Below, in pieces: positions 8,101 to 10,443 of a stretch of DNA of 10,534 nucleotides. The notes beneath the pieces were generated by a model. It searched no databases, was not told where the DNA came from, and was given only the letters and a program-made list of their open reading frames with translations. Where the stretch lies: contig CAYYQL010000060.1 of assembly GCA_964473825.1 (NCBI GenBank), forward strand, positions 1-10,534, given 5' to 3'. Source of the DNA: an uncultured archaeon (GTDB taxonomy: Archaea; Asgardarchaeota; Thorarchaeia; Thorarchaeales; Thorarchaeaceae). The first letter of the stretch is position 1; every line of letters begins with the position of its first letter. Made by a program: the position numbers and the translations under genes.

Positions 8101-8511
8101 ATGTCCACTCGAGGAGAACCAATGTATCGCGGGCACAAGCTCGACGAATTAGTCAAGATGAGTATGGATGAACTCATCGAGCTGCTCCCCGCCCGCAGGC
8201 GTCGCACCCTTAAACGTGGACTGCCTCCCCGTCAGAAAAAACTCCTCAAGAAACTCCGCGATGCGCGCAAGGCCACTCGCAAGGGCAAGGACGTGGTGGT
8301 GCGGACGCACTGCCGGGATATGGTGGTTCTGCCTGAAATGGTGGACCTGACAATCGCAATACATAACGGCCACGAGTTCAAGCGCGTCAAGATCATTCCG
8401 CAGATGATTGGGCACACGCTAGGGCAGTTTTCAATCACGAATAAAGAGGTCCGTCATGGAAGCCCAGGAATCGGCGCTACGAAGAGTTCTGCGTACGTTC
8501 CGCTGAAGTAA
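8101..8511 (+). CDS. rps19: 30S ribosomal protein uS19 (archaeal S19P / eukaryotic S15 type)
   Basis: [59 protein letters not shown], and the C-terminal [18 protein letters not shown]. Confidence 0.97.
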
Positions 8512-8538
8512 ACGATACAATCGACTCTTAGTAATTCC

Positions 8539-8560
8539 AGGGCGGTATGCGCCCTTTTCT
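8539..8560 (+). terminator. hairpin plus T-tract terminator of rps19
   Basis: AGGGCG (8539-8544)-GTATG-CGCCCT (8550-8555) followed by TTTCT. Confidence 0.65.
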
Positions 8561-8957
8561 ATATGCCATGTTCGACTCTGTTTTCGAGCCATAGCGAATG
8601 ATAGAACTCGGAGCTGGAGTTCACCCTGCCAACCACACATGCGACCCCCTATGTGAAATGTCAAGATGCTGCCTCCACATCGCAGACTTCGGTCCATCAA
8701 TCATTCTACTAGTCATGGATTTGTCCCTTGGAGAGATTCTCTTCTTCGTAATCATAGGGGGAACAAGGAAAATCGATGTTGAACTACATCAAAAGTCGGA
8801 TGGATTCCTCGATGTGGAGATGATTTACGCCTTCAACGAGAGGCTTCTACGTCCGTGGTTCAACTGACTTCTCAATCTTTACTCTACCAAGGTTTTCGGC
8901 CTCGGCCTTCTGCCTCAGGAACCATACAGGCACCTTCTCTCGGCCTGATTCTGTGGC

Positions 8958-9491
8958 TCAAGATGAACGTTCGTGTTCCCAGACTAGTCCAAACCAGTGA
9001 TTCCACCTACCGTTTGTTTGGTCCATGAAGCTTCGAATAATCCCCTCGGCATGAAAGATGAAATCCTCAACAGGGAAACCTCTCTCAGCTAGAATCCTAC
9101 GTCCCTCATCCTCTTCGATTGCCCCAATTCGAGGCACATCCTGCTCTCTTAAGAGTTTGATTACGGCCTTCTCGATGTCACTCAGAGATTCGTATTTCTG
9201 CTTTCTCTGGGAATCCATGATCTTCAGGTTCCACACGGGACCTCCCTCATAGTCGTCAACCCTATCCTCCATCCCCTTAGTCAACTCTGCAATGGTCCTG
9301 TCAACTCGCCATTCGTCCACCAATCGGCCTATAACTTCATCGACTTCTTGCGAGTCTATGTCCAGACCATGCTTCCTTCCGCGTTTCAACACCTCATCTC
9401 TAACCAATGAAACTGGAACGCCAGCCCAGTTGGAGTCCTCCTCCAGAATGGAGAAGAGAATGTGTTCGAGTTTGTTAGTTTCCGTTCGCAT
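8958..9491 (-). CDS. hypothetical cytoplasmic protein, possibly two winged-helix-like domains
   Basis: 177-aa ORF with protein-like composition; GGGGTG/GGAG RBS before ATG 9491 (GTG 9497 alternative). Helical patterns ILFSILEE..VPVSLVRDEV..EVDEVIGRLVDEWRV and LSDIEKAVIKLLRE..GAI. Confidence 0.7.
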   Translation of the reverse strand: MRTETNKLEHILFSILEEDSNWAGVPVSLVRDEVLKRGRKHGLDIDSQEVDEVIGRLVDEWRVDRTIAELTKGMEDRVDDYEGGPVWNLKIMDSQRKQKYESLSDIEKAVIKLLREQDVPRIGAIEEDEGRRILAERGFPVEDFIFHAEGIIRSFMDQTNGRWNHWFGLVWEHERSS

Positions 9492-9756
9492 CTCCACACA
9501 CCCCTTGGGAATCTAATTCTCTTCGGATTTTATCAACTAGTTTTTTTCTCTCTTCCATCCGTTCCTCAACTCTTCGCCTTTTAACCTCGTCATTGGGCAA
9601 GGCCAGTACACCAAGACGGGCGGCACCATGGATTGTAGAGGTGTTTGCATGCCACAGAGCCGACAATCGGGACGATTTCTTGTACAGAGTAATCGAAACG
9701 AAGCACGGCATCGCATCAACGCCTATCTTCCTCAATGTTTCCACCTCGTCCAACAT
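9475..9756 (-). CDS. hypothetical protein, probably the 3' part of a 5'-truncated gene; charged coiled-coil C-terminus
   Basis: Overlaps the start of the next gene (coupled operon). No RBS, and only 16 nt from the divergent gene start at 9773. Tail EVKRRRVEERMEERKKLVDKIRRELD. Confidence 0.5.
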   Translation of the reverse strand: MLDEVETLRKIGVDAMPCFVSITLYKKSSRLSALWHANTSTIHGAARLGVLALPNDEVKRRRVEERMEERKKLVDKIRRELDSQGVCGDANGN

Positions 9757-9772
9757 CAGTCTGGGAGGATTG

Positions 9773-10352
9773 GTGAACAGATTGAAGCCAAGTAGTTATG
9801 GGGCAATGTGCCTTCTGTTATCAGCGAATCTCCTGTTTTCTCCACCGCGGCTCTACGGTGTGCAAGGCTGTTTCAAGAACGACATACCAATTGATTACCG
9901 GATTAGTTTGGCGAACGAGACCGTATTCAAGAACTACTTCGCCACTCATGACTCCATAACAAGTGAGTATCAGAATCCCACAGTCTATAATAGATGTGTA
10001 CGACCCGGATAGCATCGAAGCAGTCGGGTTCATCTACAGGCGGGCCAATGAGAGCGCAACCCAGACTGAACCAATGGACAAACGGCCCTAGGGTAACAGG
10101 TACTATGGCATCTTCAGCGTCACAGTCAGTGAGCCTGAGACCGACTTCGTCATCCGGTTCTATGCCAACGACACCCTGGGGAACACCGCGTCATCACGGG
10201 AATACAAACTGAGTGTCCATTATTATCCCTACCACTACCATGATTCCGGTATCGTTCTCGGACCAGCCCACTTCATCCTCCTGGTTGTCATTCCTCTCTC
10301 GACGGCCATCGTTGCAGTTCTCTATATCGTGTTCAGGAGAGTCAGATCTTAG
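9773..10352 (+). pseudogene. disrupted Ig-like single-pass surface protein, paralog of 688-1290
   Basis: GGGAGGA RBS (9763-9769) plus GTG 9773 gives MNRLKPSSYGAMCLLLSANLLF... A +1 frameshift between 9960 and 10010 leads into IIDVYDPDSIEAVGFIYRRANESATQTEPMDKRP*GNRYYGIFSVTVSEPETDFVIRFYANDTLGNTASSREYKLSVHYYPYHYHDSGIVLGPAHFILLVVIPLSTAIVAVLYIVFRRVRS*. In-frame TAG at 10089-10091; final TAG at 10350-10352. Confidence 0.82.
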
Positions 10353-10386
10353 CACAAGGCTAGAAGATGACTAGTGCAGAGATCAA

Positions 10387-10443
10387 CATAGATGGCCCAG
10401 AATAGGCATTACGAAGAGTTCTGCGTACATTCCGCTCAAGTAG
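10387..10443 (+). pseudogene. rps19: displaced 3'-terminal fragment of rps19
   Basis: Translates HRWPRIGITKSSAYIPLK* vs [18 protein letters not shown] (8455-8511). 46/57 nt identical, ungapped, including a 19-nt perfect block TACGAAGAGTTCTGCGTAC. Confidence 0.93.

Follow-up and report, generated by a model that had tools for sequence, protein, structure and literature searches.

Several described systems carry displaced 3′ fragments, each with a conserved coding piece, downstream of one intact gene. For the rhs genes, homologous recombination by way of circular intermediates has been held responsible for the displacement of the C-terminal ends (Jackson et al. 2009, PMC2935791), and the arrays of the type VI secretion system (T6SS) of Vibrio cholerae have been attributed to a homology-facilitated recombination without integrase (Kirchberger et al. 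2017, PMC5361080). The loci of contact-dependent inhibition (CDI) are alike, and in all three systems the incoming pieces are lateral, there is no integrase and homologous recombination has been proposed. A further related case is prophage e14 (and phage 21), which sits in the 3′ end of the icd gene of Escherichia coli and leaves the fragment icdC (Hill et al. 1989, as summarised in PMC13626634). Here we describe a comparable arrangement at rps19, the gene of the ribosomal protein uS19, in an uncultured Asgard archaeon of the Thorarchaeota. The stretch of DNA analysed, called the window in the following, is the entire contig CAYYQL010000060.1 (10,534 nt) of a metagenome-assembled genome (MAG) labelled G000 (95.7% complete). 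As in e14 and icd, so far as that summary describes them, a housekeeping gene is hit in its 3′ end, the insertion appears to bring a working replacement end, and the old end is kept as a C-terminal fragment at the far side with differences that are mostly synonymous or conservative. We use the term tail for the 3′ end of a gene and displaced tail for an extra copy away from the working gene; positions given as −n are nucleotides counted back from the rps19 stop.

The rps19 gene of the window has 139 codons (8092..8511, + strand; Pfam PF00203 Ribosomal_S19, E = 1.2e-29). Its working tail, that is the last 28 codons and the stop (8425..8511, +), forms the repeat unit of the arrays described below, as delimited by the left edges of the displaced tails of the family. 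A displaced copy of this tail is found at 10359..10445 (+); it can be recognised from 10387 onwards and is decayed in its 5′ part (QHRWPRIGITKSSAYIPLK + TAG). As the earlier note had reported, a 19-nt core, TACGAAGAGTTCTGCGTAC, occurs with the same letters (19/19 identical) in copy 1 at 8478..8496 and in copy 2 at 10410..10428 (both +), corresponding to −31 to −13, whereas ∼2e-4 exact 19-mer repeat pairs would be expected by chance in 10.5 kb. The core is embedded in a 56-nt direct repeat (8455–8510 versus 10387–10442, 82% identical). The mismatch counts also stand as reported, with 8/23 upstream of the core, 0/19 in the core and 3/15 downstream, the last being GTT/ATT (V/I), CTG/CTC (synonymous for Leu) and the stop codons TAA/TAG. 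Copy 1 constitutes the actual 3′ end of the gene, and within this genus the similarity of the tails extends beyond the stop through a terminator-like hairpin. The hairpin after rps19 (8539..8555, +) is orthologous in the two same-genus comparison genomes G001 and G002; the second hairpin of the window (10460..10480, +) has a sequence unlike the first and is orthologous to the hairpin after copy 2 in G002. A tRNA scan and an Rfam scan of the window revealed no tRNA gene and no Rfam family.

The comparison within the genus shows that the DNA between the two copies is inserted cargo (8574..10379). It is absent from G001, where rps19 and its terminator are directly followed by the conserved chromosomal flank that is found after copy 2 in the window (10481..10534) and in G002. 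This empty site is compatible with a precise loss or with the insertion never having happened. G002 has both tail copies, and their outer sides are orthologous to the window: the homology ends 62 nt beyond the rps19 stop and resumes 7 nt ahead of copy 2. Between the copies G002 carries 16.2 kb of different DNA, to which the cargo of the window has no DNA homology (BLASTN, alignment). Copy 2 in G002 (L023:17821-17904) still encodes an intact 28-codon tail, and because this copy is orthologous, copy 2 of the window is a decayed full tail. Thus, the proposal of the earlier note that the second copy is a displaced former rps19 end bounding inserted DNA holds, but its reading of the upstream part as decayed donor homology is not supported. 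The two copies of G002 differ at 4/19 core positions. The exact 19-nt core of the window reflects local homogenisation, and the island itself is an old and decaying case with one cassette.

Displaced uS19 tails are widespread in the family. We surveyed 86 Thorarchaeota genomes of 16 genera, all of them MAGs, and found displaced tails in ∼32 genomes and 7 of the genera, namely g1, g2, g3, g6, g7, g8 and g15, with 1 to 7 tails per genome; the highest number on one contig is seven (G081:C84 and G069:C188). The tail unit comprises the last ∼28 codons and the stop (∼84 nt). The left edge varies between −77 and −90 across genera, with most tails beginning at −80 to −85, and outside the genus of the window the stop codon forms the right edge. 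The tails are spaced 90 bp to 5 kb apart and bound cassettes of 1–3 accessory genes in both orientations. For the 59 cassette open reading frames (ORFs) of relatives, the products among the 25 of 64 Pfam families listed include NosD/beta-helix, LRR, TPR, MFS, CN-hydrolase, methyltransferase and SBBP proteins. The DNA right after rps19 is almost never common to close relatives, and many contigs stop at a tail; in the tail-less genus g9 a conserved convergent gene follows directly after rps19. The pattern recurs in >30 independent MAGs from different studies, and 16 genomes from other families of the phylum, which were also searched, showed no extra uS19 tails. The suggestion that insertions recurrently target rps19 in Asgard relatives is therefore borne out, by the hypervariable downstream region as well as by the empty site within the genus. 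As side observations, the chromosome-level MAG G083 has two full-length rps19 genes in inverted orientation ∼55 kb apart (C1:1263512-1263925, −, and 1318578-1318991, +), and inside a cassette of the G081 array there is a fragment with the 5′ part of a tail only (L033 7222-7279, profile positions 4–61).

The sequence differences between the tails reveal their origin. When the 59 unique displaced tails are compared with their nearest working tails, 504 differing sites are found in the last 60 nt, which are distributed over the codon positions 1/2/3 as 57/52/395. The proportion of third positions (78%, binomial p = 2e-95) gives the same profile as the comparison of working tails with each other (72%). 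The peptide is unchanged in 29 of the 59 displaced tails and internal stops are present in 3. A DNA-profile search recovers the same tail set, so that there is no protein-detection bias. As the differences are mostly in third positions, the displaced tails are former working ends from several or other lineages; by the same substitution pattern they appear to be neither local duplicates nor target-site duplications. In addition, the variable segments differ among the tails of one array and match rps19 variants of other species. The working genes are affected as well: pairs of rps19 genes whose bodies are 2–7% apart have tails that are 19–25% apart, and in ∼10 of 21 pairs the change point between body and tail is near −94. 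On these comparisons we regard the working rps19 genes as mosaics, the incoming ends of which appear to be laterally acquired and decoupled from the gene body. An age gradient along the arrays, with the outer tails more decayed, was seen as a weak trend only (rho = 0.35, p = 0.057, n = 31).

Five natural cases, in which the working tail of one genome equals a displaced tail of another (L074/L044, L062/L149, L141/L041, L072/L045 and L063/L032), bear on the position of the crossovers. High identity to the downstream DNA sets in only at about −16 to −12 in most of them and covers the whole tail in one. The stretch from −60 to −17 is only ∼80% identical, and the middle of the tail fits neither side. 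In pairs which share the upstream cassette, high identity enters the tail only to about −57, and in one pair a patch from −84 to −57 is replaced with both flanks kept. The tails are thus mosaics in which junctions occur at several positions, and the core of the window is located at the commonest one. The earlier note had placed the crossover within the core. This is right in so far as the final ∼16 nt of displaced tails mostly move with the downstream DNA, so that many crossovers fall on or close to the right end of the core, but junctions are found elsewhere too (at −57, or with the whole tail). The longest exact run between two tails has a median of 8 nt, and these runs are spread over −55 to 0. 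We had considered that crossovers take place at islands of DNA identity and dropped this idea, as such short and spread-out runs do not explain the junction clusters.

The same scar is found at other genes. Within the window the etfA gene (3297..4496, − strand) is the source gene of a displaced tail located 2.7 kb downstream of it (406..561, −; tblastn, amino acids 348–399, 63% identity, one in-frame TAG). A NosD/beta-helix protein is encoded between etfA and its displaced tail (1514–2968). Tails of etfA recur in many genomes of the family, typically with a left edge ∼150 nt before the stop, and in G000 an hdrA-mvhD fusion and two more genes have displaced tails as well. The tail-only duplicates of G000, one of which belongs to the hdrA-mvhD fusion, sit 0.3–5 kb downstream of their genes (C3:46766-50218 with the tail at 55505-55678, C10:15532-16122 with the tail at 20451-20663 and C4:122698-123114 with the tail at 123438-123659); among the cargo ORFs at the C3 and C10 tails, a PIN domain was matched once and no other Pfam family was found. 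In L027 (G016:C6, 6915-7209) etfA and an SBBP gene are followed by a tail of rps19 and one of etfA, 58 nt apart, and in G069:C188 (15059-17114) an etfA tail stands ahead of the seven-tail rps19 array. Thus, tails of different genes are intermixed in one island.

A recombinase that could account for these insertions was not found by the searches we made. The tyrosine recombinase family PF00589 is present in only 29 of the 86 genomes and never on a tail-bearing contig. It was not found in the other 57, among them the array-rich genomes G081, G086 and G088, and the same search did not find an integron-type IntI tyrosine recombinase next to an array. Among the 23 high-quality genomes, 8 have PF00589; a Xer-type recombinase may be missing from most Thorarchaeota or be too divergent for detection. 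A candidate tail beside the only tyrosine recombinase of G000 (C1:57117-57323) was rejected, since it is actually the C-terminus of a full ORF of 569 amino acids. The serine recombinase family PF00239 (Resolvase) gave no match in G000, G081 and G086, and in G002 a sub-threshold match only, far off on the contig. No integrase was found among the 59 cassette ORFs of relatives within the 25 of 64 Pfam families listed, and the Pfam search of the window cargo and of the 16-kb island of G002 likewise gave no integrase. A degenerate tail pattern had 0 matches in the viral contigs of IMG/VR. The folding energy of the tails does not differ from shuffled sequences (mean z = 0.01, n = 70), so there is no attC-like fold signal. 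The 7/8 dyad that the earlier note had described is indeed present in the core of the window. When the peptide is re-coded at random with synonymous codons, 2.5% of the trials yield an equally good dyad, and only 1 of the 55 working rps19 tails of the family has it; for these reasons the dyad is most likely a side effect of the codons and not a conserved functional element. Of the features of a serine-recombinase attachment site, the repeat shows an identical core at its two junctions; the reading as such a site is not supported.

We suggest that the arrays arise by an integrase-free displacement of 3′ ends through homology-driven recombination between tails, a reading to which we assign a probability of about 0.55. 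The last ∼84 nt of rps19 would be the short shared stretch in which accessory DNA recombines in. Each gain would consist of a cargo block and a working replacement tail from the rps19 gene of another lineage, and the previous tail, or its hybrid, would be shifted downstream. Arrays of up to seven tails around small cassettes could in this way be built up, as gains and losses follow one another and tails undergo gene conversion. An element-encoded integrase would not take part; the likeliest agent would be the homologous or short-homology recombination of the cell itself, acting between the tails of donor and recipient arrays, by unequal double crossovers or by way of circular intermediates. 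The 19-nt identity of the window could then be the tract where both copies last recombined or converted each other. We favour the machinery of the cell because the junctions vary, conversion patches exist, several unrelated genes are scarred and recombinases are missing. The comparisons show the anatomy, the recurrence, the former function of the tails, the chimeric working genes, the empty site and the lack of recombinases; homologous recombination as the enzymology, the direction of the events and the origin of the first tail are what we infer. Some observations speak against this suggestion, however. With a length of ∼84 nt, an identity of 75–85% and a median longest exact run of 8 nt the tails are ill suited to classical homologous recombination. 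The left edge is rather constant at −80 to −85 across genera, and where downstream DNA is shared the right junction mostly clusters near −16 to −12; a site-specific enzyme would fit both as well. In addition, the origin of the first tail duplicate and the entry of new cargo into cassettes are left unexplained, and as the data set consists of MAGs, recombinase genes might have escaped binning or have diverged too far for Pfam.

A rival explanation is site-specific recombination. The tail or a short core would then be an att-like site, the recombinase would act in trans, reside on a transient element or belong to an unrecognised family, and the cassettes would be integron-like insertions or remains of integrative elements with a surrogate rps19 end. 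The fairly fixed left edge, the junction cluster in 4–5 cases sharing downstream DNA close to the end of the window core (−13), the replacement of most working tails from about −94 and the dissimilarity of the tails, which is too high for efficient homologous recombination, are all in favour of it, and the layout with surrogate end and displaced end matches e14 in icd/icdC (PMC13626634). We nevertheless consider this explanation possible but doubtful: tyrosine recombinases lie on no tail-bearing contig and were not found in 57 of the 86 genomes, serine recombinases were not found in G000, G081 and G086, and the 59 cassette ORFs contain no integrase within the families listed. Moreover the junctions are not unique (−57, about −16, whole tail), there is neither a fold signal nor a conserved dyad nor a viral contig with a tail, and different genes (etfA, hdrA-mvhD) with different sequences show the same scar. 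It could also be imagined that Thorarchaeota possess a dedicated gene-capture system, in which the last codons of essential genes (uS19, etfA, hdrA-mvhD and others) are the attachment sites for integrase-less cassettes and the recombinase is of an unknown family. If true, this would be a functional archaeal counterpart of the integron, with coding gene ends replacing the attC sites, but we think it rather unlikely.

Independent one-sided events by homology-facilitated illegitimate recombination, in which an insertion anchors in rps19 and its far end joins illegitimately inside the resident tail, would generate a new displaced tail each time. Such events need no integrase, could explain the first tail at each anchor gene and have been proposed for the T6SS immunity arrays (PMC5361080). 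As the main route they are improbable in our case, since illegitimate joints should scatter and the left edges cluster at −80 to −85, since the 5′ part of the displaced tail in L074/L044 does not come from the former working tail of the recipient, and since mosaic tails argue against them. A local duplication, a target-site duplication or an assembly artefact could be suspected because a direct repeat flanks an insertion and many contigs end at tails. They can hardly be upheld: the differences between copies are of the synonymous type and not a neutral decay from identity, for which reason a target-site duplication was rejected, the cargo is unrelated DNA, and the pattern recurs in independent assemblies. 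The tail length of 84 nt exceeds target-site duplications by far, and we know of none near this size.

Turning to the genes of the insertion, the cargo of the window contains a gene fragment, one small ORF without known function and an interrupted reading frame. This content, together with the lack of an integrase among the listed Pfam families of the relatives' cassettes, does not support a self-mobile element of ∼1.9 kb. The small ORF (8958..9497, −; 179 amino acids) belongs to no Pfam or PADLOC family and has 25% identity to a 217-amino acid protein of the G002 island. The fragment is a 93-amino acid ORF (9475..9756, −), a remnant with 37% identity over 83 amino acids to the C-terminus of a 1242-amino acid helix-turn-helix (HTH) protein of the same island. 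The order of these two ORFs and of their distant relatives in G002 is conserved. The third frame (9963..10352, +), read from the sequence, has a hydrophobic, membrane-anchor-like end and an in-frame TAG at 10089–10091 and is probably a pseudogene. The ORFs overlapping it in other frames gave no Pfam match, in a scan that did not cover this frame, and a relationship to the 200-amino acid protein encoded at 688–1290 was considered and dropped as tblastn gave no match at E < 0.01. The G002 island (L023 = G002:C2, 2196-12346) encodes a HerA-like ATPase of 1020 amino acids, the 1242-amino acid protein with several HTH motifs, the 217-amino acid protein and a further protein with a weak match to the FokI cleavage domain. 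By its gene content it is a candidate defence system; PADLOC applied to the cargo proteins gave only weak HerA-type matches, on the G002 ATPase.

As to the surroundings, rps19 stands alone in the window, and the genes upstream code for a TPR protein and a phosphoglucomutase. The gene order L2-S19-L22 is broken up in G000, with rpl2 on C39, rps19 on C60 and rpl22 on C3. A 114-amino acid ORF (5473–5817, +) has a sub-threshold Pfam match to DPM2 (E = 2.5e-4, 21.7 bits, cut-off 27.3), and this DPM2-like ORF adjoins the phosphoglucomutase or phosphomannomutase.

Asgard archaea have large genomes that are rich in accessory genes, and the manner in which these genes are gained is poorly understood. 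From the uS19 arrays one can read how genes were gained in series at one fixed place behind an essential ribosomal gene, and these gains occur without any recognisable mobile-element machinery. As the arrays offer ordered, datable insertions and natural before/after pairs, the recombination mechanism can be studied from sequence alone. Some practical consequences follow. rps19 and at least etfA are mosaics, the last ∼30–50 codons of which have a separate history, a point of importance where such genes serve as phylogenetic markers. Annotators should treat short gene-tail fragments as insertion scars and not as genes, and contig breaks at tails reflect strain variation.

How the uS19 arrays differ from the known systems can now be stated. 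Prophage e14 brings along a site-specific recombination system and leaves the chromosome as one piece (PMC13626634), whereas in the uS19 arrays no integrase was found, the cassettes have 1–3 genes, stacks of up to seven tails occur and the junctions are variable. Integron arrays are similar in that small cassettes are stacked at a fixed chromosomal point with a repeated element of ∼60–140 nt. On the contrary, the uS19 arrays lack a detectable IntI-type recombinase and an attC-like fold, carry genes in both orientations, and their repeated element is coding sequence of the neighbouring gene. To our knowledge, flexible genomic islands are exchanged through crossovers in the core genes on either side and leave no displaced gene ends, whereas additions to the uS19 arrays are recorded as stacked tails. 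Likeness exists in so far as integrase-free hotspots of horizontal gene transfer, or replacement flexible genomic islands flanked by core genes, have been described, in which variable accessory and surface-protein genes beside core genes are exchanged by homologous recombination (PMC4033161). The closest relatives remain the rhs, CDI and T6SS loci. There the displaced tips are the part that varies and has the function, namely toxin domains with immunity genes, but the uS19 tail is the conserved end of the gene for an essential ribosomal protein, and what varies is the unrelated cargo between the tails. Furthermore, the homology is much shorter (∼84 nt) and the host is an Asgard archaeon. What sets the arrays apart from rhs and T6SS is thus a displacement which acts on a conserved housekeeping gene, with unrelated cargo as the variable part.

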